NCBI GenBank assembly: GCA_018814445.1
Contig: JAHIZV010000139.1
Location: 4,342-68,341 of the forward strand
Direction: 5' to 3'
Length of the DNA: 64,000 nt
DNA from: Verrucomicrobiota bacterium
Lineage (GTDB): Bacteria; Verrucomicrobiota; Kiritimatiellia; JAHIZV01
Shown: one piece after another, positions 9,492-59,408 of the stretch
How the letters are laid out: every line of letters starts with the position of its first letter
Position numbering within the stretch: position 1 is the first letter of the stretch
Notes under the pieces: generated by a model
Seen by the model: only the letters and a program-made list of their open reading frames with translations
What the model was told of the DNA's origin: nothing
The model's database searches: none
Program-made: the position numbers and the translations under genes

Positions 9492-9526
9492 GGTGTTCGA
9501 TGTTCCATGTTCGATGTTCGATGTTC
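9492..9526. repeat. TTCGATG-family heptamer tandem repeat upstream of sufS
   Basis: gtgttcgatgttccatgttcgatgttcgatgttc. Confidence 0.8.
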
Positions 9527-9529
9527 TTC

Positions 9530-9856
9530 TCACGCTTTCACCAGAATCTTCTCGCCTTCGATTTTCACTTTGAACGTCGGGATCGGCTTTGTGGCCGGCA
9601 GACTCAACTGTTGACCGTTTCGAATATCAAAACGCGCGCCGTGAAACGGACAGGTCAACTCACATCCTGCCAGATCGCCGCTGATCAGAGACATTCGCTG
9701 ATGACTGCACCAGGCGCTCACTGCGTGAAACTGACCATCGACCTTGAAAAGCCCAATCTGCTTCTCTCCGCCCAGATCCACCAGCTTCCGATCCGTTTCC
9801 TCAAACTCGCCGACCGTGGCGACCTCATGCCACTCCTTGCTGTCAAACAGTCCCAT
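9530..9856 (-). CDS. Rieske [2Fe-2S] ferredoxin-like protein embedded in the suf operon
   Basis: CSH...CPFHG Rieske ligand pairs; 108 aa. Confidence 0.7.
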   Translation of the reverse strand: MGLFDSKEWHEVATVGEFEETDRKLVDLGGEKQIGLFKVDGQFHAVSAWCSHQRMSLISGDLAGCELTCPFHGARFDIRNGQQLSLPATKPIPTFKVKIEGEKILVKA

Positions 9857-9892
9857 CGTTATCTCCTGCTCCCTTTTTCCCTCGCTGCGAAG

Positions 9893-11200
9893 CTACCCTC
9901 TCTCCTGCACGTACGCATGCACCCGGTCACGAATAAACTCGTAGGGTATTCTTTGCGCGACCTCGTCGTAAAATCCGTTAATCACGACCTTGCGGGCCTC
10001 ATCCTGGCTGATTCCGCGCGAGCGAAGGTAAAACAACTGGTCTTCGTCAAGATTCCCTATCGTTGCTCCGTGACTGCACTTCAGGTCATCCGCATCAATC
10101 AGCAGACCCGGGATCGTGTCGGCTCTCGCCGAATCGCTCAGAACAAGATTGTTGTTCGTCTGATACGCATCGACTTTCACCGCTCCCGGCTTCGCGACGA
10201 TAATGCCCTGGTACACGGAGTGACTCTCGTCATTCACCGCTCCCTTGTACAGAAGCCGACTGTACGTATTCGGCGACGAGTGTATCTGCAAGGTCTTCTG
10301 GTCTACGTGCTGTTCGCCGTGCGTGAAGAACAGGCCGTCCAGTTCAGCCGCGGAGCCCTCGCCCGCAACATCACACGCGATTCGGGCTTTGACCAGGCGA
10401 GAACCGAAATTGAGCCCGATCCACTCAATGGTCGCGTTTCTTTCGACGCGGGCCCAGTCGTTGGCAAGATGCGCGCTCTGATCGTTCAGCTCCTGCAGGC
10501 TGATCACCTTCAGGACAGCACCATCTTCCACATACATTTCCTTCGTCGAGACACAGATCACCGCGCTGTCCGGACTGTTCCCGGTGCATTCGACTACGGT
10601 AGCGGACGACTGCGCACCGGATGAAAGGACCAGGCGAGGGACAAATGCCCCCGCTTCCGACTCGACGTCGCAACGCACCAGAATACCCCTCTCCAAGACC
10701 ACGTTGGGCTCTATCCGGACCAGCAACCCGAAATTCCAGAACGCGGAATTGAGCGCTTCGAACTTCCCGGCTTCCTCTCCGATCGCTTTGCCGTCAAGAT
10801 ACTGTGCCATCAATCCAGGCTCCTGTTCAGCAGCTTCGGAAAGACCCATCACTTTGACTTTGCCATCGGCAAGAAGTCCCGAGGCATCCTGTACGCCGAA
10901 GCCGTCCGCCGACACGCTCACCACGATGTCGAACAGGCTGTCATTGGGTCCCGCGACATATTTTCCTGCGGGAATGACGGGCAGAAGCTGCACTTTATCG
11001 AACGGGAACATCTGCGGGCTCGTGCGGCGCCACTCCTCATCCACTGCCCTGGGAGCGGGCAGGCCGAGGTAGCGCTCAAAAGCCTTCTGCCTTGCGGCGA
11101 TGGAGGCTTCCGCGTCGGTCAGTACCAGTTGCTCGAAAGCCCCGGCATCAAACCCGGGAATGTTCTCTTCTCGTTTCTCTGCTTCCATTTGCGTGTTCAT
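9893..11200 (-). CDS. sufD: Fe-S cluster assembly protein SufD
   Basis: 435 aa SufB/D family protein, positioned after sufB. Confidence 0.8.
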   Translation of the reverse strand: MNTQMEAEKREENIPGFDAGAFEQLVLTDAEASIAARQKAFERYLGLPAPRAVDEEWRRTSPQMFPFDKVQLLPVIPAGKYVAGPNDSLFDIVVSVSADGFGVQDASGLLADGKVKVMGLSEAAEQEPGLMAQYLDGKAIGEEAGKFEALNSAFWNFGLLVRIEPNVVLERGILVRCDVESEAGAFVPRLVLSSGAQSSATVVECTGNSPDSAVICVSTKEMYVEDGAVLKVISLQELNDQSAHLANDWARVERNATIEWIGLNFGSRLVKARIACDVAGEGSAAELDGLFFTHGEQHVDQKTLQIHSSPNTYSRLLYKGAVNDESHSVYQGIIVAKPGAVKVDAYQTNNNLVLSDSARADTIPGLLIDADDLKCSHGATIGNLDEDQLFYLRSRGISQDEARKVVINGFYDEVAQRIPYEFIRDRVHAYVQERG

Positions 11201-11228
11201 AACTCACAATCCAATCCACAATCCAAAA

Positions 11229-12677
11229 TCATCCGATGCTTCCCTCAAGTTTAATTTCCAGCAGTTTCGTGGCTTCGACCGCGAATTCCAGGGGAAGCTT
11301 CTTGAATACGTCCTTGCAGAACCCGTTGACCACGAGATTGATCGCGCTCTCTTCATCAATGCCGCGGCTCTTGATGTAGAACAGTTGATCCTCGCTGATC
11401 TTGGAAGTCGTGGCCTCGTGCTCGATAATCGCCGTGCTGTCTTCCGCTTCGATATACGGCACTGTATTCGCACTGCATTTGTCTCCGACCAACATGGAGT
11501 CGCAGATCGAGTAGTTTCTGCATCCCTTCGCACCCGGAACAACCTGAACAAGACCCCGATATGTATTAACGGACTCGTCACACGATATCCCTTTGGAGAC
11601 GATCGTACTCTTCGTGTTGTTGCCGACATGAATCATCTTCGTCCCGGTATCGGCCTGCATCCGGTTGTTGGTCACGGCCACGGAGTAGAATTCACCGGTG
11701 GAGCCGTCGCCCTCAAGGATACAGCTCGGGTACTTCCACGTGATCGCCGCACCCGCTTCCACCTGAGTCCAGGAGATTTTCGATTTCCTGCCCCGGCAGT
11801 GACCGCGCTTGGTCACAAAGTTGTAGATGCCGCCCCGGCCCTTTTCATCACCCGCGTACCAGTTCTGAATGGTCGCGTACTTGATCTCCGCGTTGTCCAT
11901 CGCGATCAATTCGACCACGGCGGCGTGCAGTTGGTTGGTGTCGCGCATCGGAGCCGTGCAGCCTTCGAGGTAGGACACGTAGGCGCCTTCGTCCGCGATA
12001 ATCAGCGTGCGCTCAAACTGCCCCGTGTCCTGCGCGTTAATACGAAAGTAGGTCGAGAGTTCAACCGGACATTTCACGCCCTTCGGAACGTAGACGAAGG
12101 ATCCATCCGTAAATACCGCAGAGTTCAGCGAGGCAAAGTAGTTGTCGGTGTGCGGGACTACCGCCCCCATGTACTTCTTGATCAGATCAGGATGCTTGAT
12201 AATCGCTTCTGAAATCGGACAGAAGATAATGCCCATCTCCTCGAGCATTTCCTGATGGGATGTAGCCACTGACACACTGTCAAAGACGGCATCGACAGCG
12301 ACACCCTCCAGGCGCTTCGCTTCACCGAGCGGAATGCCTAGTCGCTCAAAGGTCTTCGAAATCTCCGGGTCTATCTCCCCGTCTTCATTCTTGAAGCGGT
12401 CAATCATCTTCTTTGGAGCCGAGTAGTAGCGGATGTCCTGATAGTCGATCTCCGGATAGTCCAGCAACGCCCATCGCGGCTCTTTCCTTGTCGTCCACCA
12501 TCTGTACGCCTTCAAACGCCACTCAAGCATCCACTCCGGCTCATTCTTCTTGGCCGAAATAAAGCGAATGATATCTTCATTCAGCCCCTTCGGAGCCTCA
12601 TCAGCTTCGATGTCAGTAACGAAGCCGTACTTGTACTCGCCGGAGGCAAATGTCTCTTTTGTTTCAATTTCACTCAT
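11229..12677 (-). CDS. sufB: Fe-S cluster assembly protein SufB
   Basis: 482 aa, strong SufB-like sequence throughout. Confidence 0.9.
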
Positions 12678-12709
12678 ATACCTGACCTCTGACTTCTGCC
12701 TTCTCTCCC

Positions 12710-13498: not shown

Positions 13499-13502
13499 TC
13501 AT

Positions 13503-13543
13503 TCGATGTTCATTGTTCGAAGTTCGATGTTCGATGTTCAAAG
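13503..13543. repeat. TTCGATG-family heptamer tandem repeat upstream of sufC
   Basis: ttcgatgttcattgttcgaagttcgatgttcgatgttcaaag. Confidence 0.8.
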
Positions 13544-13888
13544 ATCGAATCCAAGCTCCAACTTAGCTTCTTCAGACATCCGGTCCGGGCCCCAGGGGGG
13601 ATTCCAGATAACGTTCAAATTCACTGCCTTGATGCCCGGCTGTGTCTGCGCGGTCTGATCGACCTGGTACAGAAGCTGAGGACCATAGGGACAGCCCGGC
13701 GTCGTCAACGTCATATCGATATCCGCCGCGCCGTCTTTCACCCGCACATCATAGAGAAGTCCGAGATCCACAATGTTCATGTGCAGTTCGGGATCCAGAA
13801 CCGTCTTTAGAAGTTCACGTACAGCATCCTGCAGTTGTTCGTCTGTCAGCGTCTGCCCTTCCCCCTGTTCTTTCACTTCGTCCGTCAT
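13538..13888 (-). CDS. SufT/DUF59 (MIP18-family) Fe-S assembly protein
   Basis: 116 aa with a PGCP-containing DUF59 signature; located in the suf operon. Confidence 0.65.
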   Translation of the reverse strand: MTDEVKEQGEGQTLTDEQLQDAVRELLKTVLDPELHMNIVDLGLLYDVRVKDGAADIDMTLTTPGCPYGPQLLYQVDQTAQTQPGIKAVNLNVIWNPPWGPDRMSEEAKLELGFDL

Positions 13889-13916
13889 CTCCTCTTCCTC
13901 ACATTGGATCCCCCGG

Positions 13917-14345: not shown

Positions 14346-14463
14346 CGCCCAGCCATCAGGGACCAAATAGGTCGCATTTACTTCCAAAAAAATAGACCGG
14401 TTCCCGATCTCTTGAGGCAATATAGCTTCCCCGTTGCGGCTGTCAAACGTTTGCGGCACGGAA

Positions 14464-15291: not shown

Positions 15292-15353
15292 TCCCCGTTA
15301 CACTCTTCACAGCGTCTTGCCGACCGAAGACTGACCGCCCCACAGGAACTGTG

Positions 15354-16289
15354 CTACATCCTCTCACTGCACGACGCGCCGTAGGCGAAGCAGGAGAAGC
15401 AGCGATGATGTTTCATCATAATGCGGGCCTTCATGGCATCACTCAATGTGCTCCCGAGATCGTAGTCCGCATCATCGTCAACCAGCGTGCAGGCATAGAC
15501 CCGCATTTCTCCGTCTTTCTTCAGGACGAACTTGGTATAGTCGCACATGAAGCCGGAGCGGCTCTTCTCGGTGTGATACGTCGTCATACAGTTCTCGGTG
15601 ATCTCCGGCACGTCGGGTGTCTCTCCCGGCGTCAGAAATTCCGGAAAGCTGACGATATTGATGTCGGTCGGAACGCCGATCTCATCGAGGAACGGAGCGA
15701 ACTGCCGGTCAATCGCCTCTGCGTCTTCATCCTTCGCCCGCTGACGCGCAATCGAAACAGGAAAACCGTAGACATGAAGTCTGCGCAGGGCGTCCAGCGA
15801 CTGCCGGAACGTTCCCGGGCCCCTTCCCTGCTCGTGCTTCGTCTCATCGGGATAGTCTATGCTGACGCGAAATTTCAGCGGATGCGGCTTCTCAAGCAGA
15901 GGCAATACTTCTTCCATTCTATTCAGAAGAGGCTCGGTGCCGTTGGTAAGGACAAGACACGGGCAGTGATCCAATGCGCGGTCCAGGATTCTGACAAACT
16001 CAGGAATCACGAAGGGTTCACCGCCTGTGAACGAGAACTGCTCCACGCCCATCGACATCGCCTCGTCTATGAAAGGCTTCGCGTCATCGAACGTGATTGG
16101 GTTGATCCGGTTGTCGCCCGGTTTTGATCCTTCGAGACAGAACGGACAACGAAGATTGCAGGTTGTCCCCGTATGAAACCACAGTTCGGTCAGCTTCTCA
16201 GGCAGAATATACCCCCTGGCTTCCCCCCGTGAGGTCAGAAGCCAGTCGCTCTCTGCCTTTGAACGTTGAACGTTGAACTTCGAACTCAT
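15354..16289 (-). CDS. Radical SAM protein with C-terminal Cys-rich region (possibly ArsS/TIGR04167-like)
   Basis: CNLRCPFC (Cx3Cx2C) plus C-terminal CxxC...C cluster; start placed at ATG 16289 forming an ATGA overlap with the upstream stop. Confidence 0.65.
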   Translation of the reverse strand: MSSKFNVQRSKAESDWLLTSRGEARGYILPEKLTELWFHTGTTCNLRCPFCLEGSKPGDNRINPITFDDAKPFIDEAMSMGVEQFSFTGGEPFVIPEFVRILDRALDHCPCLVLTNGTEPLLNRMEEVLPLLEKPHPLKFRVSIDYPDETKHEQGRGPGTFRQSLDALRRLHVYGFPVSIARQRAKDEDAEAIDRQFAPFLDEIGVPTDINIVSFPEFLTPGETPDVPEITENCMTTYHTEKSRSGFMCDYTKFVLKKDGEMRVYACTLVDDDADYDLGSTLSDAMKARIMMKHHRCFSCFAYGASCSERM

Positions 16290-18713: not shown

Positions 18714-18764
18714 AGGACCTTAGATTCCGCCAAAGCACACGGGATGTCAACGGATACGGAAGGA

Positions 18765-18837
18765 GTTCAAAGTCCTCAGTTCAAGGTTCAAAGAGTCTCT
18801 ATGCCTCCTTTGAACTATAAACTTTGAACTTTGAACC
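18765..18837. repeat. Inverted GTTCAAA/TTTGAAC heptamer arrays in the divergent PduO/suhB promoter region
   Basis: gttcaaagtcctcagttcaaggttcaaag...ctttgaactataaactttgaactttgaacc. Confidence 0.8.
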
Positions 18838-18860
18838 TTAAGCACTAGGCTCTGAGAATC

Positions 18861-19652: not shown

Positions 19653-20019
19653 CCGTCACGCGAACGGAAGGCCGTTCTTTCATCGAGACCGTCACAACGT
19701 CCCACGCAACCGTCTCGCGGCCCACCTTCACAAATCCTTCTTCGCTGTCGACGTCCCACTCCCCGGCGGCGTCACCATCTTCCAGACCCAACTGCCGGCT
19801 GGTGAATGTCGATTGCGCACCAAGCGCCGCCTCTTGAAACAGCTGAGCCTGTCTCTCCGCGGTAAGCGAGCGTATGAGCGATGTGCCTACAACAGTTGCC
19901 AGCACACCGACAATCAGAAGGGCGACGAGCACCTCAATGAAGGAGAATCCGTTCTCTTTGAACTTTGAACTGAGAACTTTAAACTTAGGAATCCCCACTG
20001 GAAATATCCGCCGCATCAT
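19621..20019 (-). CDS. Minor pseudopilin (prepilin-type N-terminal cleavage/methylation domain)
   Basis: G|FSFIEVLVALLIVGVLA prepilin signature; leader overlaps the 3' end of the upstream pseudopilin gene; start codon uncertain. Confidence 0.55.
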   Translation of the reverse strand: MMRRIFPVGIPKFKVLSSKFKENGFSFIEVLVALLIVGVLATVVGTSLIRSLTAERQAQLFQEAALGAQSTFTSRQLGLEDGDAAGEWDVDSEEGFVKVGRETVAWDVVTVSMKERPSVRVTVSLRALDTDL

Positions 20020-20458
20020 CCACTCCGCCGGGTTCGCCGTCGCTTCCGTAGCTGATAATCTCATAAGGCAGGTTATCTCTCCCCGGAACCAGGTAGATGT
20101 ACGGCCGCCCCCACGGATCGAGGGGCACATCCCTGCTTTCGAGATACCCTTCGTCCGGATAGTTGCGGGGAACCGGCGCGGTCGCGGGCTCCCTGACCAG
20201 CGCATCAAGTCCCTGCTGTTGAGTCGGAACGAAACCGTTCTCCGTGCGATAGACCTGGATCGCAGTCTGCAGATTCTTGATCTGCACTTTCGCGGCAGTG
20301 ATCCGCGCTTCGGCAGGCTTCCGCAATACGTTGCCCCCCACAATCCCCGCCAAGACCGCGATGATGACGAGAGCGACGAGAATCTCAATCAACGTGAAGC
20401 CCTGCCTGCGATCGCCTCGATGTCCGATGTTCGATGTTCGATGTTCGATGTTTTCCAT
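19985..20458 (-). CDS. GspG-like major pseudopilin (type II secretion/type IV pilus-like)
   Basis: G|FTLIEILVALVIIAVLA plus DPWGRPY GspG motif; ATG 20458 with GGAGG SD (GTG 20464 would overlap the polB stop); the 20-aa leader is encoded by the AACATCG x3 repeat. Confidence 0.7.
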   Translation of the reverse strand: MENIEHRTSNIGHRGDRRQGFTLIEILVALVIIAVLAGIVGGNVLRKPAEARITAAKVQIKNLQTAIQVYRTENGFVPTQQQGLDALVREPATAPVPRNYPDEGYLESRDVPLDPWGRPYIYLVPGRDNLPYEIISYGSDGEPGGVDDAADISSGDS

Positions 20459-32793: not shown

Positions 32794-32922
32794 AAGAAGG
32801 TTTTGGGTGTTCGGTGTTCGGTGTTCGGTTGAGATAACTGCTTATTCAACCATCCCCCATCAACCATCAACTATGGGTGGTTCTGTCGGGCGGCAATCCA
32901 TGGGTGGCGAATTGGGGGGAGT

Positions 32923-33655: not shown

Positions 33656-33749
33656 AAACATCGAACATCGAACACCAAACATCAAACAGCGAACAGCGAA
33701 CGTTTTCCGGATTCGGAATTCGATGTTCGATGTTCAGAGTTCGATGTTC
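33656..33749. repeat. Inverted pair of heptamer tandem arrays (AACATCG x3... / ...TTCGATG x3) between ybaB and recR
   Basis: Read directly from the sequence. Confidence 0.8.
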
Positions 33750-34067: not shown

Positions 34068-34159
34068 AAAGGCCTCTCATTAACCCGATCCCGGATTCCG
34101 GTTTCCGGATGTCGGATCGCGCCTGTTCCATCCGGCATCTGGAATCGGGCATCCGACAT

Positions 34160-35863
<1,704 letters not shown>

Positions 35864-35882
35864 GTCGCTTCGCTCCATTCAT

Positions 35883-35958
35883 GAATGGGGGATTGGGAGA
35901 AAGGGGGAAAGGGAGATCGCCCTCTCTTCCATTCACCCATTCTCCCACTCTCACTTCT
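35883..35958. repeat. G/A-rich 'AATGGGAGAAAGGGGGAAAGGGAGA' palindromic element (family also at 37183-37220 and 41363-41418)
   Basis: Three copies in the window, all at gene 3' ends or flanks; each contains an inverted GAATGGGAG/CTCCCATTC stem. Confidence 0.7.
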
Positions 35959-36140: not shown

Positions 36141-36293
36141 CATTCCAGGAGGCCGATCCAGAATCTCACAGCCTCACGCGGGAATTAAACCCTGCTATAG
36201 CGGGTTGCAGGTCTTCCGCCAAGGCGGAATCAGGGCACCGCTACCTCCCCGTCTAGCACGACCAAGGGAGAGCCTACCCTCGGAGGGCAGGCA

Positions 36294-36409
36294 GTTCAAA
36301 GTCTAAAGTTCAACGTTCAAAGCCTTTCAAAGTTCGATGTTTGATGTTCGGTGTTCTGCGGTGCCTTTTTCCTCGCATCGGGCACCCGGTATCTGGTATC
36401 CGGTATCGG
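36294..36409. repeat. Composite heptamer arrays (GTTCAAA, TTCGATG, then GGTATCN x3) ending 3 nt before the surE start
   Basis: Read directly from the sequence. Confidence 0.8.
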
Positions 36410-36411
36410 TC

Positions 36412-37164: not shown

Positions 37165-37357
37165 CGGCGAAGCCGCTAGAGCGGGAATGGGAGAAAGGGA
37201 GAGCAGGCGAATGGGAGCCCGAAGATGCCCGCCATACCCATTCAACCATTAACCATCGACCATGGTGCAGTCGGCGTACATGGGGATGATTTCTTCCGAT
37301 ATTGGAAGTTGAGAGTTCGATGTTCGTTGTTCGATGTTTCGCGGTCGACGGCCGCGG

Positions 37358-39311: not shown

Positions 39312-40130
39312 TCAGCTTCCCGAGAGTTCTTTGGATCTGTGTTCCGCTGCTTTAACGGCGTTGACGATGGCCTCTCCGACTCCGCTCTTCTCAAATACGG
39401 CCACGGCGGCGGCCGTGGTCCCGCCTTTCGACGTGACACGGGCCCTCAAATCCTCGGCACTCGATCCCGATTCGCTCATCAGCTTCGCGGCCCCCTGGAC
39501 AGTAGCCAGAACAAGGCCCCTGGCCGTGTCAGCGTCCATGCCTAATTCATCAGCGGCCTTGAGCATGTGCTCGATCAGGTAGAACACATAGGCCGGGCCG
39601 CTTCCGCTCAGCGCAGTGACGGCATCCATCGCATCCTCGTCAACTCGCACGACGATACCGACAGAGCCGAGCAGCTTCTCCGCGACGGCCAGGTCGTCAT
39701 CTGTCGCACGCGAGCCGGACGCTATAGCCGCCGCGCCGAGCCCGACGAGCGCAGGCGTATTCGGCATGACGCGAACAAGACGAATCCTGTCGCCAAGAGC
39801 CGATTCAAAGACCGTGCTTCGCAGTCCTGCGGCAATACTGATCACAAGTGTTTTCTCGCCGATCGCGCCGCGAAGTTCATCAAGGACCTCGGTCATGACC
39901 TGCGGCTTGACGGCCAGCACAACGATATCCTTCCCATCGACTGCTTTGCGATTGTCTGTCTCCGTCCCGACGCCGAATTTTTCACGGAAGATCGCCAGAC
40001 GGGCTTCCGCGATATCCGTAACAACAATATTGGCCGCGGGGCATACGCCTTTGCTGACGATGCCGCTGACGAGCGCCTCCGCCATGTTGCCCGCGCCGAT
40101 GAAGCAGATGGTTGATGGTTGATGGTTCAT
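39312..40130 (-). CDS. proC: Pyrroline-5-carboxylate reductase ProC
   Basis: ICFIGAGNMAEAL Rossmann N-terminus and P5CR fold; codons 2-8 are encoded by an AACCATC x3 repeat. Confidence 0.85.
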   Translation of the reverse strand: MNHQPSTICFIGAGNMAEALVSGIVSKGVCPAANIVVTDIAEARLAIFREKFGVGTETDNRKAVDGKDIVVLAVKPQVMTEVLDELRGAIGEKTLVISIAAGLRSTVFESALGDRIRLVRVMPNTPALVGLGAAAIASGSRATDDDLAVAEKLLGSVGIVVRVDEDAMDAVTALSGSGPAYVFYLIEHMLKAADELGMDADTARGLVLATVQGAAKLMSESGSSAEDLRARVTSKGGTTAAAVAVFEKSGVGEAIVNAVKAAEHRSKELSGS

Positions 40131-40165
40131 GGTTCAGATTCCGGGTTTCGGGTTTCGGGTTTCAG
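40107..40165. repeat. Heptamer arrays spanning the proC start: GGGTTTC x3 upstream and GGTTGAT x3 inside the first codons
   Basis: Read directly from the sequence. Confidence 0.8.
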
Positions 40166-40997: not shown

Positions 40998-41059
40998 CCC
41001 GTAATCGTAATCATAATCCTACTCCTGATCTCTGCCTGTCGATTACGATTAGGATTACG
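40998..41059. repeat. Inverted CGTAATC/GATTACG heptamer arrays upstream of the DUF1805-like gene
   Basis: cgtaatcgtaatcataatcc...cgattacgattaggattacg. Confidence 0.8.
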
Positions 41060-41361: not shown

Positions 41362-41423
41362 GTGAATGGGAGGTATCTCCCACTCTCCCATTCTCCCTTT
41401 CCCCCACTCTCCCCTTCCAGGCT

Positions 41424-49016: not shown

Positions 49017-49027
49017 ATGCGAATGGG

Positions 49028-49893: not shown

Positions 49894-50106
49894 TCAACCC
49901 TTTCTCCGCCTCACAATCAGGAGTGAAGTCAGCAAGCCCAGACCGAAACCGAGGAGTGCGGCAAGGAACAGCAGGAATGCGCGCGGCATGGTGACCGTGG
50001 CAAAGAGTATCTTCGTTTCAACGGCTGCCGTGTTCTGAAGAACAACGATCGTCAGAAAAAGAATCAGGACCAGAATGACTACCAGTTTGAATTTTGCGCT
50101 TCTCAT
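49894..50106 (-). CDS. Small membrane protein (LapA/DUF1049-like)
   Basis: 70 aa with two TM helices and an RRRKG tail. Confidence 0.45.
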   Translation of the reverse strand: MRSAKFKLVVILVLILFLTIVVLQNTAAVETKILFATVTMPRAFLLFLAALLGFGLGLLTSLLIVRRRKG

Positions 50107-50127
50107 AAAATGACCTCCGTTTTACTG

Positions 50128-50754
50128 CTACCAGTCTTTCTTCCACTGAACCGCCGCCGCCCCGTTCTCATCCTCGTTCCCCGACGCGTCGTAGATGAAC
50201 CAGAATTTTCTCCCGGGCAATCCAAGTTCAATGCGCTGCATGATGTACGATTCGTTTTCCGGGCTCCATAACCCTCCAACGCCCAGCGACAGCGAGCTCG
50301 TGACGGTACCGGACGCGCTTCGGAGCTGCTTGAGCTGATCCGTGTTGAGCTTCAGACGCATGGGAGTCTGTGCTTCCGGCTTTGGCCCGAAAGTCATGGT
50401 GCCGTCCGGTTGAGTAACCAGGAGCGGAACGCCGGACCGGGCAATACGCTGGGCTACGAAACGCTCAAGATTCGATGCCGTTCCCGATGAGTCCCCGCGA
50501 TACAGCACGTACAGGTCAGGCCGTTCCGCGCGAGAGATGTAGTTGGTGAACTGTTGCGGCGTCATGTTCGTACCATTGACGACAAGCCCCCCGCTTTCAG
50601 TCATGCGGATGTCAGCCTGGCTCACCACCCTTGAGCATTGCGATGTGTCACTCGCCGCGCGGGAGCCAGCGATCAGAGCCGGAAAAAGCAGTAGAAACAG
50701 TACTAATATACAGCGCATAACAGTTCTCTCGATGCCGACATAGAGCCCAGACAC
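50128..50754 (-). CDS. Hypothetical secreted protein
   Basis: Signal peptide, 208 aa, no recognised domain. Confidence 0.4.
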   Translation of the reverse strand: MSGLYVGIERTVMRCILVLFLLLFPALIAGSRAASDTSQCSRVVSQADIRMTESGGLVVNGTNMTPQQFTNYISRAERPDLYVLYRGDSSGTASNLERFVAQRIARSGVPLLVTQPDGTMTFGPKPEAQTPMRLKLNTDQLKQLRSASGTVTSSLSLGVGGLWSPENESYIMQRIELGLPGRKFWFIYDASGNEDENGAAAVQWKKDW

Positions 50755-50792
50755 CCCCCTCGCATCCGCGCCCCCTGACTACTGATCACTGA

Positions 50793-51905
50793 TTACTCAT
50801 TCTCGACGTCTGACGAAGATCTGAGCCAGCCTTTTCTCTTGAAGAACCAGAGCATTCCGCCCGCAACCAATATCATCACGACCCAAATCAACGGGTAGCC
50901 CCATTTCCAGGTCAGCTCAGGCATGTTGAAACGGGAGGCCTCGTTGCTGAAGTTCATGCCGTAGATACCGGCGATGAAGGTCAAGGGAATGAAGACGGAA
51001 GCCATGATCGTCAGTACCTTCATAACTTCATTCATGCGGTTGCTTACCTGTGACAGATAGAAATCCATCAGACTCGAGCACATCTCCCGCAGACCTTCGT
51101 TCATTTCAATGATGCGAAGGGAGTGGTCATAGGCGTCACGCAGATAGAGAAGCGTCTCCTTCTCGAAATGGCGCGACTGGTCCCGCGTCAGCGTGTTGAG
51201 CATATCACGCACACCCCACATCACCCGGCGGATGGAAACAAGACACCTCTTCATGCGATAGATTCGTTTGACGCTTCCGCTGTTCGTCGATTGCATGATA
51301 GCAGCCTCGATGTCTTCGACGTCCTCATCATTCTTCTCAAGAAGGGGGAAATAGGAATCGATAATGACGTCTATCATCGTATAGGCCAGGTAACCCGAAG
51401 ATGATTTTCTCACGCGGCCTTTATCCTGCACGATTCGATCCAGTATGGTCTCCAGCCGGTGTATGGAGGTTGACTGAAACGTCACGACGTAGCCCTTGCC
51501 CAGGTAAATGCAGATCTGCTCAAAGTCGAGCCCGTTCTCGAACACCGGATACTGCATGACGATAAAGAGGTAGTCGTCATACTCTTCGACCTTCGGGCGC
51601 TGGTTGAGACTGACGACATCCTCCAGCGACAGCCTGTGGAAGCCGAACAGGTCGCCCAGCTTCGTCAGGAGCCCCTCGTCTCCAAGTCCGTTAACGTCGA
51701 CCCACACAACACTGGACTTCCCAAGAAAGGGCTTGATTTCATCAGGATCGGCAACTCGCTTTTGAACCACCTCTGCCGCGCTGTACGCTATGACGTCAAT
51801 GGTCGGAAGAGGTGAGTCTTCAGGGATATTGAGATGCCCGGGGGGCAGTCCGATGTCGCGCGTGTACGAAGCCTTCATCCTCCACGTCTCCTCAGTAATC
51901 GTCAA
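50793..51905 (-). CDS. corA: Magnesium/cobalt transporter CorA
   Basis: YGMNF...MPEL signature and two C-terminal TM helices. Confidence 0.85.
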   Translation of the reverse strand: MTITEETWRMKASYTRDIGLPPGHLNIPEDSPLPTIDVIAYSAAEVVQKRVADPDEIKPFLGKSSVVWVDVNGLGDEGLLTKLGDLFGFHRLSLEDVVSLNQRPKVEEYDDYLFIVMQYPVFENGLDFEQICIYLGKGYVVTFQSTSIHRLETILDRIVQDKGRVRKSSSGYLAYTMIDVIIDSYFPLLEKNDEDVEDIEAAIMQSTNSGSVKRIYRMKRCLVSIRRVMWGVRDMLNTLTRDQSRHFEKETLLYLRDAYDHSLRIIEMNEGLREMCSSLMDFYLSQVSNRMNEVMKVLTIMASVFIPLTFIAGIYGMNFSNEASRFNMPELTWKWGYPLIWVVMILVAGGMLWFFKRKGWLRSSSDVENE

Positions 51906-52018
51906 AACGAACCTGACTCATTTGTCATTTGCACAGTAGCACAGAATCCCGCGGATGACACCCCGCAATCGTCCAGGACAACCATCCCGGCAATAGCTTT
52001 CCGCGCCGGTCACACGGG

Positions 52019-54787: not shown

Positions 54788-54904
54788 TCGGCGGGGCGGA
54801 CACGGCGTTTTGAGGCCATTCCAGGACAGTCTTCAGTTCTGACAGCGACTGCTTGACACTTCCGCGCATATACATATATTGGCCCTTCACTTCGCGGGAA
54901 GGCC

Positions 54905-54980
54905 GGGGGGTTAGCTCAGTTGGGAGAGCGCCTGAATGGCATTCAGGAGGTCGTGGGTTCGACCCCCATACCCTCCACCA
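54905..54980 (+). tRNA. tRNA-Ala (GGC)
   Basis: Acceptor GGGGGGU with the G3:U70 alanine identity pair; anticodon loop AUGGCAU; CCA encoded. Confidence 0.85.
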
Positions 54981-55099
54981 GCCTTCGCGAGTTCATGATC
55001 GCCGCTTGACTCCCCCCGTTCCGGCCCCACAATACCCATGTCGATGAACTTAACGTCCAGGCGGGAAAGTCATATTCTTAACGTCGGAGGGAGAAGAGA

Positions 55100-55693
55100 A
55101 TGAAAGCACAGCATATAGTCGTCCTCAGCATTGTTTTCGGCCTGTTCTGCGGTTTCACGTCGGCCTTCGGGCAGGATGCAGAAACGGAGACTCCGGCTGT
55201 ACCGCGGATCCTCGTGATTCTTCCCGAGCAGGTTGATGTGGAATGGTTCTGGTATCACTACACGGCCCAGTCCCAGCATATTGTCCAGACCGCCATCGAG
55301 CAGGAGCTGGTTCGTGCCGGTTTTGACCTGGTCGACGTTTCCGCCGCGGAAGGCGCAAAGGCATATGGTTCGATTGACGCACTCCTGAACAAAGACAACG
55401 CAATCAAACTCGCTAAAGAACTCGGAGCTCAGTACGTCATCATCGGCCAGGCAAGTGCTGTCCGCGCCAGTCATGACGTGGCCTACGGCGTAAATGTATA
55501 CCGTTCAGAGGCTGTCGCCAGCGCGAAAATTATCCGCGTTGAAGACGGGAAGATACTCGACGTTGTGGAAATAGATGCCGATGCCGGCGGACAGTCCCAG
55601 CGGACAGCGGGAAGAGACGCGCTGAAGGATGCGGGAAAATCGCTCGCTAAAGAAGTGCGCAGGCAGACAAAAGGACTGTTGCCGCCCGAATAA
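55100..55693 (+). CDS. Hypothetical secreted protein (possibly LPP20/FlgO-like fold)
   Basis: Signal peptide; 197 aa; no firm motif. Confidence 0.4.
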   Translation: MKAQHIVVLSIVFGLFCGFTSAFGQDAETETPAVPRILVILPEQVDVEWFWYHYTAQSQHIVQTAIEQELVRAGFDLVDVSAAEGAKAYGSIDALLNKDNAIKLAKELGAQYVIIGQASAVRASHDVAYGVNVYRSEAVASAKIIRVEDGKILDVVEIDADAGGQSQRTAGRDALKDAGKSLAKEVRRQTKGLLPPE

Positions 55694-55736
55694 GCCAACT
55701 CATTTCCGAGTTTCGAATGCTGATTTTCGATGGGGG

Positions 55737-56297
55737 ATGTTTGTGTCCGGGAACCACAGACCGAAATTCAGGAATCGAAATTCGAAAATCGTTTTCTCCT
55801 GGCCCGATCCCCCTCTGAACGTTGTCCTTGTCGAACCTGAGATCCCCCCCAACACGGGCAACATCGCGCGGCTGTGCGCGGCGACGGGCTCGACACTTCA
55901 CCTCGTAGGACCTCTTGGTTTCCGCCTGACCGATCGCGCGCTCAAACGGGCCGGTCTGGATTACTGGAAGTCTGTCACCATCGTCCGTCACAAGGATCTG
56001 CAGGAGTTCCTGCCCGCGATCACCGGCCGGCGGTTTCATCTCCTCAGCACGTCAGGGGAGACCTGCTACACAGAAGCATCATTCGCCCCAGGGGACTTTC
56101 TCATCTTCGGAAGTGAGACAAGGGGTCTGCCCGGAGACTTTCTGGAAGCATATAGAGAACGCGTTCTCGGCGTCCCCATGATCACCAGTAGTGTCCGGTC
56201 CCTGAACTTGGCAACAACTGCCGGGATCGTGCTGTACGAAGCTCTTCGGCAAGCGGGAAGGCCCGCCTCTCCTCCGATGGTTGATGGCGCGTCCTGA
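55737..56297 (+). CDS. trmL: tRNA (cytidine/uridine-2'-O)-methyltransferase TrmL (SpoU/TrmH family)
   Basis: EPEIPPNTGNIARLCAATGSTLHLVGPLGF SPOUT motifs; the ATG lies inside an inverted heptamer-repeat structure, so the start is uncertain. Confidence 0.75.
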   Translation: MFVSGNHRPKFRNRNSKIVFSWPDPPLNVVLVEPEIPPNTGNIARLCAATGSTLHLVGPLGFRLTDRALKRAGLDYWKSVTIVRHKDLQEFLPAITGRRFHLLSTSGETCYTEASFAPGDFLIFGSETRGLPGDFLEAYRERVLGVPMITSSVRSLNLATTAGIVLYEALRQAGRPASPPMVDGAS

Positions 56298-56429
56298 ACC
56301 CGGGTTTGGGATTTCAGTTTTTCTTTCTCACTTTCCCCTTTTTTGTTTGAACAAAACGCTCTCTTCTCAGTCAGTATTGAGAGACTCTAAACAGGCAGAT
56401 AGCTGTGGAAAGAAATACAGGAGTTCATC

Positions 56430-57419: not shown

Positions 57420-57448
57420 AGGTTCAAGGTCCCATGTCCCGGATCCAA

Positions 57449-57489
57449 AGTCAGACACTCAGGTCTCAGGTCTCAGGTTTCAGGTTTCC
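57449..57489. repeat. CAGGTCT/CAGGTTT heptamer array ending 3 nt before the DUF58 start
   Basis: ctcaggtctcaggtctcaggtttcaggtttcc. Confidence 0.8.
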
Positions 57490-57492
57490 CAT

Positions 57493-58377
57493 ATGATTCC
57501 AAAGGAAATCATACGCAAGGTTCGGCACATCCAGATCCGGACACGTCACATGGTCAATGACGTGTTTGCGGGCCAGTATCACAGTGTGTTCAAGGGACAG
57601 GGCATCGAATTCGAAGAGGTGCGCGAGTACGTTCCGGGGGACGATATTCGTTCTATTGACTGGAACGTGACCGCCCGCATGGGGCATCCCTATATCAAGA
57701 AATTCGTCGAAGAACGTGAAATGACGGTCATGCTTCTTGTGGACATCAGTGCTTCAAATGTTTTCGGGAGCACTCAACAGCTTAAGAAGGACCTCGCGGC
57801 GGAAATTGCCGCTGTGCTGGCTTTCTCCGCCATCCGGAACAACGACCGCGTCGGATTGATTCTTTTCACCGACGAAGTGGAACGCTACGTTCCCCCGCAG
57901 AAGGGCGTCCGACACGTCCTGCGTGTCATTCGGGAAGTTCTTCACTTTGAACCCAGGCAGAAGAAAACGCGGGTCGTCCCGACGCTTGATTTTCTGAATC
58001 ACGTCGCCACGCGCAAAGCAGTCACGTTTCTCATCAGCGATTTTCTTTTCCCCGAAGACTATAAGCGGGCATTGACTGTAACCGCGAAACGCCACGACCT
58101 CGTCGGCGTCATTGTCAGGGATAAACGCGAACAGGCATGGCCGAAGGTCGGGCTTGTGGACTGGGAAGACGCGGAGTCGGGTCGGCGATATCTCGTGGAT
58201 TCAAGCGACGCGTCCGTAAGGCGCGCCCTGGCGAGAATGGAAGAGGCGAAAATGGAGAGGACGCGCGAGATTCTCCGGAGCTCAGGCTGCGACCGGATTG
58301 AAGTGTTCGCAGGCGAGTACTACGAAAAGGAATTCATCAAGTTCTTCCGCATGAGAGAGCGGAGGTTGAGGGTATGA
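57493..58377 (+). CDS. DUF58 (vWA-like) protein, MoxR partner
   Basis: Conserved DUF58 core; follows moxR. Confidence 0.8.
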   Translation: MIPKEIIRKVRHIQIRTRHMVNDVFAGQYHSVFKGQGIEFEEVREYVPGDDIRSIDWNVTARMGHPYIKKFVEEREMTVMLLVDISASNVFGSTQQLKKDLAAEIAAVLAFSAIRNNDRVGLILFTDEVERYVPPQKGVRHVLRVIREVLHFEPRQKKTRVVPTLDFLNHVATRKAVTFLISDFLFPEDYKRALTVTAKRHDLVGVIVRDKREQAWPKVGLVDWEDAESGRRYLVDSSDASVRRALARMEEAKMERTREILRSSGCDRIEVFAGEYYEKEFIKFFRMRERRLRV

Positions 58378-59408
58378 AGACGTGTGGAAGTGTGAAAGTG
58401 CGTGAGTATGGAAGTGGACCGACCCCCACACCCCCGTACTCCCACACCCCCATACTGCTTCTTTGCCTGACACTTCTTGTTTCCGCCTGCTCGCAAACCA
58501 ACGCTCCCTCAGGTGCGAGCCAACATGTGACCGCCTCCCTCAGCACGAATACCATTCACATCGGCGATGAAGTAATCGCCACACTGTCAGTGATTCATCC
58601 GGCAGGCACACACGTTCAACTGGATGAGCCCGGACGGGGTAAGGCCATCATCGTCCGCGACAGAAAATGGGATTCCTCCGAGCTGAATCCAACACAACTG
58701 ATTTCGCGCGCGACCTACACGCTCACCTCTCTGGAGATCGGCGATCACAGTGTGTCCACGGGCAGAGTCCAGATTGTGAGCGAAGAGGGGGATGCCGTTT
58801 CGGCGCCTTATCCCGATATTCAACTGCATGTCGTAAGTGCGCTGGAATCAGAAGACACCCAGCCGCACGACATCAAAGACCTGGCCGTCTGGCCCCGACG
58901 TTTTCCCCGCTGGATCGGCGTTCTCATCGGCATCGCACTGGCCGCCCTTGCGATTGCTTTGCTGGTTGGCCGCTTTCTCTCAAAACCCCGCACGATTATT
59001 CACGAACCTCCACCCATTCCGGCTCACGAGAAGGCGCTCCGCGCATTGATGCTTCTGAAGGAGAAGGGATGGATCGAGGCTTTGAACATAGAACCCTTCT
59101 ATGTTGCCCTCTCAGATGTCGTTCGCCATTACATCGAAGACCGGTTTCGTCTTCACGCACCCGAGCGGACGACGGAGGAGTTTATCCGCGAAGCGGCGGC
59201 CAACTCTGATCTCAATACAGATCACCGAATGCTGGTGTCCGACTTCCTGACCCAGTCCGACCTGGTTAAGTTCGCAAAGTACCAACCGGAACAGCGCGAC
59301 ATGCAATCAGCCTTCGACTCAGCAGAGCGCCTGATACACGAAACCACCTCTTCTGTACCCCCAGACTCCCACACTCCCACACACGGGGAAAGGGGGCGGC
59401 AAACATGA
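58374..59408 (+). CDS. Bat-operon membrane protein (DUF4381-like); N-terminal region encoded by octamer/heptamer repeats
   Basis: Lipobox-like LVSAC, central TM helix; position between DUF58 and BatA. Confidence 0.5.
   Translation: MKTCGSVKVREYGSGPTPTPPYSHTPILLLCLTLLVSACSQTNAPSGASQHVTASLSTNTIHIGDEVIATLSVIHPAGTHVQLDEPGRGKAIIVRDRKWDSSELNPTQLISRATYTLTSLEIGDHSVSTGRVQIVSEEGDAVSAPYPDIQLHVVSALESEDTQPHDIKDLAVWPRRFPRWIGVLIGIALAALAIALLVGRFLSKPRTIIHEPPPIPAHEKALRALMLLKEKGWIEALNIEPFYVALSDVVRHYIEDRFRLHAPERTTEEFIREAAANSDLNTDHRMLVSDFLTQSDLVKFAKYQPEQRDMQSAFDSAERLIHETTSSVPPDSHTPTHGERGRQT

Follow-up and report, generated by a model that had tools for sequence, protein, structure and literature searches.

The 64-kb window, by which we mean the whole stretch of DNA analysed, contains 20–25 tandem arrays of seven-nucleotide units, a number that is real and represents a huge excess between genes. 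By type they belong with the heptanucleotide simple-sequence repeats known as STRR or "long SSR", here in the metagenome-assembled genome of an uncultured Kiritimatiellota-like bacterium, and they are a further example of an already described bacterial phenomenon. That they persist at places where the reading frame is safe is largely shown; that they are born by slippage, transcribed, constrained and possibly used at the RNA level is a reading to which we give about an even chance.

Results

With Tandem Repeats Finder (TRF; period 7, at least 2.5 copies) we recovered 23 rows, essentially at all the coordinates of the original prediction, which had claimed at least 20 such sites. Our own scan gave 20 arrays of period 7, against zero to four for periods 4–6 and 8–13, and the 12 arrays of period 14 are a harmonic of period 7. 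A stricter scan retained eight arrays of period 7 and none of periods 4–6 and 8–12; over 20 dinucleotide-preserving shuffles of the window its mean was 0 for periods 6–12 and rose to 0.2 at period 5 and 2.0 at period 4. Among single families, (GTTCAAA)3 had nine matches at four loci and (AACATCG)3, with up to three mismatches, 19 matches at seven loci, with none expected in either case. Genes cover ~90% of the window, and 506 of the 561 array bases (~90%) fall outside them. The sites are as follows, with the strand where one was assigned.

9488..9529, minus: (AACATCG)~5, which takes up the spacer between the Rieske-gene stop (9530) and a point 13 nt ahead of the sufS start (9474)
11205..11230, minus: (GGATTGT)~3 in mRNA sense (CACAATC on plus), the entire 28-nt sufB-sufD spacer, overlapping the sufB stop and ending 4 nt short of the sufD ATG
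12682..12704, minus: (AAGTCAG)3 in mRNA sense, sufC-sufB spacer, ending 4 nt short of the sufB ATG
13502..13549, minus: (AACATCG)~6.5, including the DUF59/FeS_assembly_P stop codon (13538-13540) and extending to 3–15 nt before the sufC start
16257..16286, minus: (GTTCAAC/GTTCAAA)~4 in mRNA sense, from the FAD/NAD oxidoreductase stop codon, upstream of a radical-SAM gene
18765..18836: inverted pair GTTCAAAG... / ...CTTTGAAC, divergent spacer between a cobalamin adenosyltransferase-like gene and an inositol monophosphatase gene; predicted hairpin, z −4.8
19956..19986, minus: (GTTCAAA)~4, overlapping the leader-peptide (5') end of a gene with a prepilin-type N-methylation motif
20417..20452, minus: (AACATCG)5 with four perfect units, 8 nt past the polB stop codon
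22730..22760, plus: (AGAAGTC)~4, weak, 16 nt upstream of the polB start and antisense to polB
32799..32871: (GGTGTTC)3.4, an AACACCG variant on the minus strand, + (TCAACCA)3.7, between gene 31615-32793 (plus) and tRNA-Asn (minus)
33657..33749, minus: inverted pair filling the ybaB-recR spacer, 5' arm (AACAUCG)4 directly after the ybaB stop, 3' arm (CGAUGUU)6 ending 4 nt short of the recR AUG; predicted 106-nt hairpin, −50.3 kcal/mol, z −9.3
34084..34160, minus: inverted pair of CCGGAWN-type heptads, 92-nt dnaX-ybaB spacer; z −2.8
35883..35952: period-8 inverted pair (GAAAGGGG)4 / (CCCACTCT)4, between the dnaX start and the SRP RNA 3' end; z −4.4
36293..36407: (GTTCAAA)~4, (GTTCGAT)3.6 and (CCGGTAT)3.1, surE / SRP-RNA divergent spacer, the last ending 4 nt short of the surE ATG
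37238..37340: (CCATTNAA)2.5 + (GTTCGAT)3.4, convergent spacer of surE and a PTS-EIIA/HTH gene, the latter array in AACAUCG sense, 17 nt after the EIIA stop
40104..40163, minus: (AAACCCG)3 then (AACCATC)4 in mRNA sense, yggS-proC spacer, the second providing the proC start codon and first ~7 codons
41000..41060: inverted pair CGTAATC... / ...GATTACG, period 6–7; z −2.6
50775..50799, minus: (CTGAYTA)3, weak, across the corA stop codon
57458..57488, plus: (CTCAGGT)4, moxR-DUF58 spacer, ending 4 nt short of the DUF58 ATG
58382..58456, plus: period-8 inverted pair (GUGUGGAA... / ...CCCACACC), directly after the DUF58 stop codon; z −4.5
59360..59382, plus: (CCCACACT)2.9, period 8, with the batA ATG 23 nt downstream

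Not every unit first proposed is a heptamer. TCCCACAC (59358) and GGAAGTG (58382; GGAAGTG/GTGTGAAA) have a period of 8, and CGTAATC (40998-41059), which does form an array and an inverted pair, was scored as period 6. The CTGA(C/T)TA array (50775) indeed crosses the corA stop, weakly and below the TRF threshold; CAGAAGT (22731) is likewise present, with only 72–75% matches, like the weak CGAAATT array (55762).

The expected placement at gene starts and boundaries was borne out: at 9 of 15 sites in the window the array begins 0–8 nt after the upstream stop codon, at 6–7 of the 15 it ends 3–5 nt before a start codon, and arrays fill intercistronic spacers in dnaX-ybaB-recR, yggS-proC and the suf operon, where they make up four of the five. 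Shine-Dalgarno content did not differ significantly between genes preceded by arrays (2/9) and other genes (14/37). The arrays are, as stated earlier, neither CRISPR nor MITEs, and the suggestion that inverted pairs can form hairpins agrees with folding against shuffles, where z ranges from −2.6 to −9.3 across the pairs, the ybaB-recR pair being followed by three others at −4.4 to −4.8. Single arrays fold no better than their shuffles.

A second assembly reproduces arrays: Logan contigs of run SRR2540949 are identical to the window at the arrays at 9488, 11205, 34084-34160 and 35883-35952, although these contigs probably derive from the same reads and thus represent a second assembler rather than a second sample. 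Contig ends coincide with the arrays at 33719 and 12686, as expected of dispersed repeats.

The original prediction took a varying orientation to mean DNA-level elements without strand specificity; AACATCG, the commonest family, is strongly strand-specific relative to transcription. Six of its seven loci in the window lie on the minus strand, that of the surrounding genes, and the one plus-strand copy forms a hairpin's 3' arm. For single AACATCG arrays between co-directional genes, with gene calls that are heuristic for all orientation counts, sense outnumbers antisense 15:1 in metagenome and 13:0 in viral contigs, 28:1 in total; AAGTCAG (23:5) and TTTGAAC (29:7) also prefer the sense orientation, as against 3:2 for a control heptamer. 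AACATCG arrays are rarer in divergent than in convergent spacers (3 versus 12), and inverted pairs have the geometry AACATCG..loop..CGATGTT in a ratio of 21:1. The rule is not general: the GTTCAAA family has one orientation at two operon sites of the window and the opposite one in most viral contigs, and among 27 non-AACATCG arrays A exceeds T in 12 and C exceeds G in 13, giving no common composition or orientation. As gene strand and GC skew coincide in the window, the sense bias could partly reflect a replication-strand bias.

Comparison with relatives points to fast turnover of the intergenic arrays. Orthologous junctions measure 7–14 nt or overlap in L083 and L085, and the same junctions are array-filled and 92–193 nt long in the window; L087 has arrays there too, but of different heptamer units. 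No arrays were found at the corresponding junctions of L083, L085, L211 and L215, and for those operons they are thus dispensable. The surE-SRP spacer has period-7 arrays in the window, L083, L085, L087 and L010. Farther afield, (AACATCG)n occurs in >120 metagenome contigs, in phage contigs and in Desulfoglaeba, with a modal length of 5–6 units, perfect at the 5' side and degenerate at the 3' side, and a recurrent module, (AACATCG)3-4 followed by AACGCCG or AACGTCC, then AACATCGAA and T/TG, recurs across unrelated loci, distant taxa and phage contigs. Exact 21-mers of the heptamers had 0–58 matches in viral contigs and those of the octamers 0–3, against an expectation of ~0.03 based on a rough estimate of the size of the viral collection; a random control heptamer, with 16 matches, forms arrays too.

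Arrays also occur in frame inside real genes such as ArgJ. A 42-nt array there shows no differences (0/42) between two genes whose flanks differ at 21 of 128 positions, and a third orthologue has undergone a concerted unit change; the loop varies in steps of seven amino acids (21 nt), and close orthologues carry different unit families in it. Array length did not change between L087 and L088, which are separated by 8 SNPs in 21.7 kb, or between the window and the Logan contigs.

Discussion

We suggest that the arrays arise when units are duplicated in tandem and replication slips, with an inherent preference for seven-nucleotide steps, a slippage bias already proposed in the literature, and that units are then expanded, contracted and homogenised, an occasional inverted duplication giving the paired arrays. 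As is largely shown, they survive where the reading frame stays intact: in intercistronic spacers, 3' trailers and 5' leaders and, where 21 nt or a multiple of it keeps the frame, in protein loops. Judged from position alone, they would share transcripts with the genes on either side, and constraint, possibly use, would then act on the RNA rather than on double-stranded DNA. A single array would provide a tract with little structure, placed immediately behind a stop codon or immediately in front of a start codon, and the AACATCG tract itself is without start and stop codons. Since such a tract replaces the tight or overlapping junction of relatives, it should set the initiation of the downstream cistron, perhaps through ribosome access or the docking of a putative single-strand RNA-binding protein. 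In paired arrays, the AUG-containing arm appears always to lie 3' of its complement, and the RNA is predicted to fold into a long hairpin, by which the tract could be masked; alternatively, the hairpin could act as a processing or stability element.

A rival account, less probable in our view but a serious competitor, is that heptamer-biased slippage litters non-coding DNA without any function, and that the regularities reflect only the purging of harmful configurations such as frameshifts, exposed AUG repeats and stop codons inside ORFs. Fast turnover and the array-free junctions of four relatives are consistent with this, as are the many unrelated units, the arrays of the control heptamer, the lack of a functional theme among neighbouring genes, and the concerted change and 21-nt steps in ArgJ; moreover, avoidance of AUG accounts for both the sense bias and the pair geometry of AACATCG. 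It does not predict the direction in which AAGTCAG and TTTGAAC are oriented, however, and it sits poorly with a length distribution that is modal rather than monotonic, the polar architecture, the unchanged ArgJ array between diverged flanks, and the recurrence of arrays in the surE-SRP spacer of five lineages.

The view of the original prediction, that these are double-stranded DNA elements, either arrays bound by operator-like or nucleoid proteins, comparable to the heptad operators of ribbon-helix-helix repressors, or cruciform-forming sites, we consider unlikely. In its favour, arrangements are both direct and inverted, and the divergent promoter spacers at 18714-18860 and 36262-36411 contain arrays. 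Ahead of the SRP RNA, the last TTGAAC unit occupies the position expected of a −35 hexamer, 17 bp from a TAGGCT, and Nostoc reporter data suggest that heptamers modulate the action of LexA and NtcA. Yet most arrays lie within operons, after stop codons or inside ORFs rather than at promoters, they show a strong strand bias relative to transcription, AACATCG is depleted in divergent spacers, the unrelated units number more than ten and would each need a binding protein, and in L087 the promoter-like hexamers of the SRP gene stand apart from the array.

Slightly less probable still is the copying of a pre-formed ~40-nt heptad module to new sites by a putative enzyme, in the manner of REPINs, which are copied by RAYT transposases. 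The AACATCG module shared across loci, taxa and phages, the modal size of 5–6 units and the different families in one ArgJ loop would suit such a process; shared flanks, target duplications and terminal repeats are lacking, the window ORFs scanned include no transposase-like gene, parallel transitions in GC-rich genomes can produce variants such as AACGCCG, and the control heptamer forms arrays as well. Phase-variable loci, with copy number switching expression, are suggested by simple repeats adjoining start codons and promoters but are very improbable given imperfect repeats of only 3–6 units, housekeeping neighbours (suf, dnaX, recR, proC, surE) and array lengths that are equal in L087 and L088 and in the window and the Logan contigs.

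The RNA-level reading thus concerns a class of element that, contrary to the original prediction, has been described: heptanucleotide repeats are documented in cyanobacteria, Xanthomonas, Beggiatoaceae and Geobacter and in a prokaryote-wide survey (PMC4692102, PMC4679880, PMC2700814). In that survey, as later papers summarise it, they are the most abundant class of long simple-sequence repeats (Mrazek et al. 2007; PMC4679880, PMC4692102). In Calothrix and Nostoc they are known as STRR. With the long SSRs and the STRR of Calothrix PCC 7601 our arrays share tandem 7-nt units, several families per genome, a strong excess over other non-triplet periods and a mostly intergenic position; they differ in belonging to a new phylum (Kiritimatiellota/Verrucomicrobiota), in having new units (AACATCG, GTTCAAA, AAGTCAG, AACCATC and others) and in being short (3–6 units).

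The TAACTGA repeats of Beggiatoaceae lie just upstream of start codons and within ORFs (MacGregor 2015, PMC4679880) and resemble our arrays in having two to six copies, some inside ORFs, and in occurring in distant phyla beside genes of all functions. TAACTGA is, however, a single unit with stop codons in all frames and one reported indirect repeat, whereas the window has many units, the main one free of start and stop codons, many arrays abutting stop codons and many inverted pairs. The GGGAATC and GGGGAYT repeats in Xanthomonas and in Nostoc (Rehm et al. 2015, PMC4692102) share other traits with our arrays: they mostly have about four units, are intergenic and near start or stop codons, include convergent inverted pairs capable of stem-loops, and keep their position between related species as length and sequence differ. 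Those units are quadruplex-capable G-tracts, unlike our period-7 units; only the period-8 arrays are G- or C-rich. In Geobacter metallireducens (heptanucleotide x4/x5) and Nostoc 7120 (recF/recO), four to eight contiguous heptamers stand by start codons or promoters at dozens of loci (PMC2700814; bioRxiv 10.1101/2022.06.06.494920). Their units differ from ours, although TTCAAAA of Nostoc recF resembles GTTCAAA, and reporter deletions in Nostoc changed expression modestly (10.1101/2022.06.06.494920).

REP, BIME and REPIN sequences are likewise scattered through intergenic DNA, often where the neighbouring genes converge or are co-transcribed, and their paired copies form hairpins in mRNA; our single arrays are direct repeats without self-complementarity or conserved flanking tetranucleotides, and no RAYT gene is present among the window ORFs scanned. 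What our analysis adds to the known systems is the in-frame occurrence of arrays in real genes and the spread of (AACATCG)n through metagenomes, phages and Desulfoglaeba, together with its strand bias, pair geometry and modal length, three features apparently without counterpart in the long-SSR and STRR descriptions as these are available to us (PMC4679880, PMC4692102).

Abundance and authenticity of the arrays

In the 64-kb window, Tandem Repeats Finder gave 23 rows of period 7 and 2.5 or more copies and confirmed essentially all of the positions at which the original prediction had placed tandem heptamer arrays at gene boundaries. In an independent scan, 20 arrays had period 7, while periods 4–6 and 8–13 yielded 0–4, the 12 at period 14 being a harmonic of 7; a stricter scan gave eight at period 7 and none at periods 4–6 and 8–12, and in 20 dinucleotide-preserving shuffles, it gave none at periods 6–12 and means of 2.0 and 0.2 at periods 4 and 5. 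With up to three mismatches, (AACATCG)3 has 19 matches at seven loci, and (GTTCAAA)3 has nine matches at four loci; none is expected for either, placing the arrays far above what base composition produces by chance. The AACATCG, GTTCAAA, AACCATC and AAGTCAG families occupy seven, four to five, three and two loci, respectively, and 506 of the 561 array bases (~90%) fall outside annotated genes and RNAs, the unannotated sequence being ~10% of the window. As tandem 7-mers of at least three copies, showing a period excess, noncoding and forming several multilocus families, the arrays pass as long SSRs of the STRR type.

Most of the units originally listed stand, but TCCCACAC and GGAAGTG have period 8 and CGTAATC has period 6, and the CTGAYTA, CGAAATT and CAGAAGT arrays are weak. 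A second repeat class, of period 8 and with G- or C-rich units (GAAAGGGG, CCCACNNN), lies at four or five junctions (sites 35883–35952, 41376–41418, 58382–58456 and 59360–59382), two of its sites being inverted pairs with a hairpin z of about −4.4. At 61898–62086, within the ORF 61407–62240, CAG/CAA-rich sequence repeats at periods 3, 15 and 18 and probably encodes a Gln/Asn-rich low-complexity segment.

An assembly artefact is ruled out. The Logan contigs of run SRR2540949, a second assembly of probably the same reads, show 100% and 99.98% identity to the window through several arrays and reproduce these without change, so the arrays are present in the reads and are not the product of one assembler; similar arrays occur in NCBI, ENA and JGI assemblies. 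The Logan contigs end at arrays, and the practical effects of such repeats include broken short-read assemblies, miscalled "hypothetical proteins" of 30–70 aa and false tRNA calls. At 37256–37349, ARAGORN reports a "tRNA-???" with a 4-base anticodon that spans a GTTCGAT array and has no Rfam call; the GTTCGAT and GTTCAAA units mimic the tRNA T-loop consensus, and the call is probably a false positive from the repeats.

Placement at gene junctions

The neighbors of the arrays are ordinary housekeeping genes, the window containing the suf operon, murB, polB, lptD, dnaX-ybaB-recR, the SRP RNA, surE, proC, yggS, corA and moxR-DUF58-batA. Only the SRP RNA and three tRNAs reach the Rfam thresholds, and no known RNA family does so at the arrays of the window. 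In the suf operon, arrays fill four of the five spacers, the one between sufD and the Rieske gene alone lacking an array and carrying a canonical AGGAG.

Arrays in the spacers of the suf operon
DUF59 gene to sufC, minus strand: (AACAUCG)~6.5, including the stop codon of the DUF59 gene
sufC to sufB, minus strand: (AAGUCAG)3
sufB to sufD, minus strand: (GGAUUGU)3, making up the whole 28-nt spacer
Rieske gene to sufS, minus strand: (AACAUCG)5

The expected position at gene starts and boundaries is borne out across the window: at 9 of 15 sites the array starts 0–8 nt past the upstream stop codon, and at 6–7 it ends 3–5 nt ahead of the downstream ATG (sufB, sufD, recR, surE and DUF58, with sufC ambiguous). 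At one site each, the array furnishes the proC start codon and encodes a prepilin leader. This position implies that the arrays are transcribed. A displacement of Shine–Dalgarno sites by arrays was considered and is not significant, the motif being present in 2 of 9 array-preceded genes and in 14 of 37 genes.

Turnover among relatives

SurE and DnaX are nearest to Kiritimatiellae/Pontiellaceae MAGs at only 63–66% identity, the best DnaX relative reaching no more than 65%. The yggS-proC-X-EIIA-surE-SRP-dnaX-ybaB-recR block is syntenic in three lineages whose DnaX is 63–64% identical to that of the window, and four of its junctions, all array occupied in the window, are short or overlapping in two related loci, L083 and L085.

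Junction lengths in L083/L085 and in the window
dnaX-ybaB: 12 nt; window, 92 nt
ybaB-recR: 7–14 nt; window, 99 nt
EIIA/surE: 8–13 nt; window, 193 nt
yggS/proC: overlapping; window, 97 nt

A further relative, L087, is no closer to the window than L083 and L085. Three of the window's array spacers hold heptamer arrays there too: an inverted GGGGAAT pair in dnaX-ybaB, an inverted AACGTCC/AACATCG pair in EIIA-surE and arrays in the surE upstream region. In the window, as in L083, L085, L087 and Tichowtungia (L010), period-7 arrays occupy the surE-SRP spacer. On these comparisons, the arrays are dispensable insertions recurring at permissive junctions.

Upstream of the SRP RNA, the last TTGAAC/TTGGAC unit lies at about the −35 position (window, 36262–36300; L083, 9582–9628; L085, 9637–9685); 17 bp separate the window's unit from a TAGGCT that ends 7–9 nt before the RNA 5′ end. 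A reading of the arrays as tandem −35 hexamers (TTGAAC) suits the SRP RNA upstream region of the window and agrees loosely with L083 and L085; it was rejected, the promoter-like hexamers of L087 standing apart from the array. A promoter role was likewise rejected for viral TTTGAAC arrays, which at 0–20 nt from start codons are too close.

Strand bias, size and hairpin geometry

Among single arrays between codirectional genes, the sense:antisense ratio for AACATCG is 15:1 in metagenome contigs (among the matches listed) and 13:0 in viral contigs, a pooled bias of 28:1 among the matches listed, and the ratios for AAGTCAG and TTTGAAC are 23:5 and 29:7; for the control unit ACAAGCT, it is 3:2. Divergent spacers hold fewer single AACATCG arrays (3) than convergent ones do (12) among the matches listed. 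Gene calls in the fetched loci are heuristic, being the longest ORFs filtered by codon-position GC. The original prediction of DNA-level elements indifferent to strand is contradicted for the commonest family. Within the window itself, gene strand coincides with GC skew, so that the sense bias is inseparable from a replication-strand bias. Near 52 kb (~50000–56000), mostly minus-strand genes give way to plus-strand ones and GC skew moves from negative to about zero or positive, which looks like a candidate replication origin.

The arrays have a modal length of 5–6 units in metagenome contigs (52 of 91 among the matches listed), and 28 of 57 viral arrays have five; choosing contigs with three perfect units shifts these statistics upward but creates no mode. 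AACATCG arrays are polar, with near-perfect 5′ units and degenerate 3′ units, and AATG is a common 3′ flank; in the variants (AACGCCG, AACGTCC, AACACCG), AAC is invariant and positions 4–5 change. Arrays of other families have no common composition and no start/stop-codon asymmetry, and no single base-composition rule was found for the sense strand of all arrays.

Only inverted pairs fold, single arrays doing no better than shuffles (z +0.6 to −0.3). The suspicion that such pairs could form hairpins holds, with RNA z scores from about −2.7 to −9.3.

RNA folding of inverted pairs in the window
ybaB-recR: −50.3 kcal/mol, z −9.3
18760–18840: z −4.8
58380–58460: z −4.5
35880–35955: z −4.4
Two further pairs: z about −2.7

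The order AACATCG..loop..CGATGTT occurs in 21 of 22 inverted AACATCG pairs (21:1) and reads alike on both strands, so whichever strand is transcribed, the AUG-containing arm would be made second and could pair at once. Intrinsic terminators (a short GC-rich stem and a U tract) were also considered; the terminator-like sites at 30–42 kb include none of the array pairs.

Arrays within genes

In metagenome contigs, some AACATCG arrays (15 in sense and two in antisense orientation among the matches listed) sit mid-gene and in frame within genuine genes. Agmatine deiminase, UvrD, EngA, ArgJ and a B12-binding/MeaB fusion are among these genes, and the arrays encode NIEHRTS-type peptides in loops or linkers. 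A peptide search with (NIEHRTS)6 returned mostly spurious short ORFs called over intergenic arrays. In the MeaB fusion, an array occupies the same linker in three diverged genes (L093, L103 and L148); it stands directly ahead of the P-loop motif VIGFTGPGGAGKTT, the remainder of the linker being unconserved.

In Verrucomicrobiota ArgJ (82–98% identity), one loop, between LANGLAGN and FQxALNHVCLELAK, holds translated arrays that differ among orthologs. The units are AACATCG, AACATCC, AACATTC, AGAAGTC and AAAATCA and the peptides, in proteins P0239–P0358, NIEHRTS, NIQHPTS, NIQHSTF, EVRSQKS and KIKNQKS; the lengths of a few orthologs vary in 7-aa steps, each equal to three units (21 nt). Such differences at this identity point to unit switching and 7-aa length steps within an essential enzyme. 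Between two ArgJ loci, L211 and L215, the 42-nt array is identical and 21 of the 128 flanking positions differ (chance identity, P ~ 7e-4), and a third, L212, shows a concerted change of three units to AACGCCG. The intergenic arrays of the ArgJ loci are not conserved.

Distribution beyond the window

Exact (AACATCG)3 occurs in at least 120 stretches of metagenome contigs with GC from 35% to 67%, and an AACATCG array is found in an AT-rich contig as well. In AACATCG-bearing contigs, period 7 accounts for 151 tandem arrays and any other period for at most 24 (among the matches listed). The complete genome of Desulfoglaeba alkanexedens ALDC carries AACATCG arrays of 11, 16 and 5.4 copies, the last inverted (L209, 9798–10883; CP040098, ~2.265 Mb); they are interleaved with ~270-bp higher-order repeats made of GTTCCCAAGC...GCTTGGGAAC palindromes, and a called gene for a 65-aa "hypothetical protein" spans one of the arrays. 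At locus L125 (491–1369), a ~97-nt higher-order repeat is present five times with one AACATCG-type array per copy (CAAACATCGAACATTCAACATC...).

Viral contigs were scanned for exact 21-mers, with two heptamers and two octamers as controls.

Matches in viral contigs
AACATCG: 30
GTTCAAA: 43
AAGTCAG: 58
Control heptamer ACGATCA: 0
Control heptamer ACAAGCT: 16
Two octamers: 0 and 3
One hexamer: 109 (presumably coding repeats)

The chance expectation is ~0.03, resting on a rough estimate of the collection size, and the heptamer excess fits the published rank of heptanucleotide repeats among long SSRs. Secondary arrays in AACATCG-bearing contigs match other window units in 21 of 72 cases against 8.9 ± 2.6 for shuffled units; the idea of a closed universal vocabulary of units is, however, weakened by the 16 viral matches of a random control heptamer. 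Several TTTGAAC-array viral contigs (among L246–L288) have long runs of the 8-nt repeat AACTNNNN downstream of the array, with AACTTGTG, AACTCGTA, AACTAAAA and similar units.

Interpretation

Overall, the arrays form a period-7 SSR family at noncoding junctions, with strand-specific main families, a fixed pair geometry, a modal size, fast turnover and in-frame coding loops. Several of these regularities go beyond what pure DNA slippage predicts: the 28:1 sense bias (among the matches listed), the 21:1 hairpin geometry, the mode of 5–6 units, the placement at stop and start codons and the in-frame enzyme-loop copies that are identical while their flanks diverge. The reading we favor, with its merits and doubts evenly balanced, combines an origin with a 7-nt bias, homogenization and RNA-level selection. 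The arrays would arise by slippage or duplication, as the literature proposes, and be homogenized through expansion and contraction; selection on the RNA would remove exposed AUG-bearing repeats and may keep structure-poor tracts, or hairpins, at cistron junctions.

That the arrays are a neutral by-product shaped by purifying filters alone is a less probable but serious alternative; their absence from the short junctions of L083 and L085 sits easily with it, and the modal size and the ArgJ array that is identical while its flanks diverge speak against it. More tentatively, a small vocabulary of strand-specific heptad modules such as (AACRYCG)5–6, common to distant phyla and phages, might be kept by nucleotide-level selection because a conserved single-strand RNA-binding protein docks on them. 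The sharers would be Kiritimatiellota, Verrucomicrobiota, Desulfobacterota and their phages, the candidate binders a cold-shock-domain or an S1-like protein, and the antisense arm of paired arrays might serve to mask the tract. CAUC/CACC, the variable cores of these arrays, are the preferred motifs of the YB-1 cold-shock domain; Rho, Hfq and CsrA were considered and dropped, as neither the 7-nt spacing nor the G-poor units suit their known site geometry. If true, the docking reading would amount to a widespread unrecognized post-transcriptional signal at cistron junctions.

Double-stranded DNA binding sites are an improbable explanation. Omega-type ribbon–helix–helix repressors do bind contiguous promoter heptads as double-stranded DNA regardless of strand, but most arrays here are intraoperonic or follow stop codons and are strongly strand biased. 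Mobile or templated insertion appears more improbable still; in about 100 aligned AACATCG arrays, there are no shared flanks, in keeping with the earlier view that these are not MITEs, which have terminal inverted repeats, a target-site duplication and a common internal sequence. Phase variation is the least credible. In one pair of near-identical strains of a related lineage, L087 and L088, no array changed in length across 8 SNPs in 21.7 kb, which may argue against hypermutable switches.

Why bacteria gather tandem repeats of exactly seven bases, and whether the repeats have any role, has been a question since 1990. Together with the new regularities, a cultured carrier of long AACATCG arrays, D. 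alkanexedens ALDC, opens it to experiment.

Comparison with known systems

Heptanucleotide repeats are the commonest class of long SSRs in most prokaryotic genomes (Mrazek et al. 2007, as summarized in PMC4679880 and PMC4692102). Tandem heptamers have been described as the STRR of Calothrix (PMC4692102, PMC4679880), as Xanthomonas GGGAATC repeats, which form convergent inverted pairs of conserved position and variable length (PMC4692102), as elements of four and five heptamers in Geobacter metallireducens (PMC2700814) and, in Nostoc 7120, at recF and recO, where reporter effects were modest (bioRxiv 10.1101/2022.06.06.494920). The arrays thus belong to a known kind, and the original claim of an undescribed class is too strong. 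The literature searched contains no mention of the AACATCG repeat itself. The cyanobacterial STRR1–3 units are CCCCAGT, TTGGTCA and CAACAGT, none of which, rotations and complements included, is among the Tandem Repeats Finder consensus units of the window.

The arrays are not CRISPR, as had been noted, the units being contiguous and without unique spacers. Unlike REP/BIME/REPIN elements, whose unit is a folding imperfect palindrome, single arrays here fold no better than shuffles. Among the ORFs scanned in the 64 kb available, there is no RAYT (Y1 transposase) gene of the sort associated with such elements. Unlike phase-variable contingency SSRs, which are perfect repeats in the promoter or 5′ coding region of surface or virulence genes, these have imperfect units and housekeeping neighbors, and unlike the G-quadruplex heptamers of Xanthomonas and Nostoc (at least four units with GGG), the period-7 units lack G-tracts except in (CGGGTTT)3. 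The TAACTGA repeat of Beggiatoaceae lies, in forward orientation, a short distance upstream of start codons and within ORFs, with S1, Csp or CsrA proposed as binders (PMC4679880). The unit is absent from the Tandem Repeats Finder list of the window, its nearest match being the weak CTGAYTA at 50775; like TAACTGA, however, the window arrays end 3–5 nt before the ATG of sufB, sufD, recR, surE and DUF58 and overlap that of proC, and with them the window adds a new phylum to the heptamer-repeat question.
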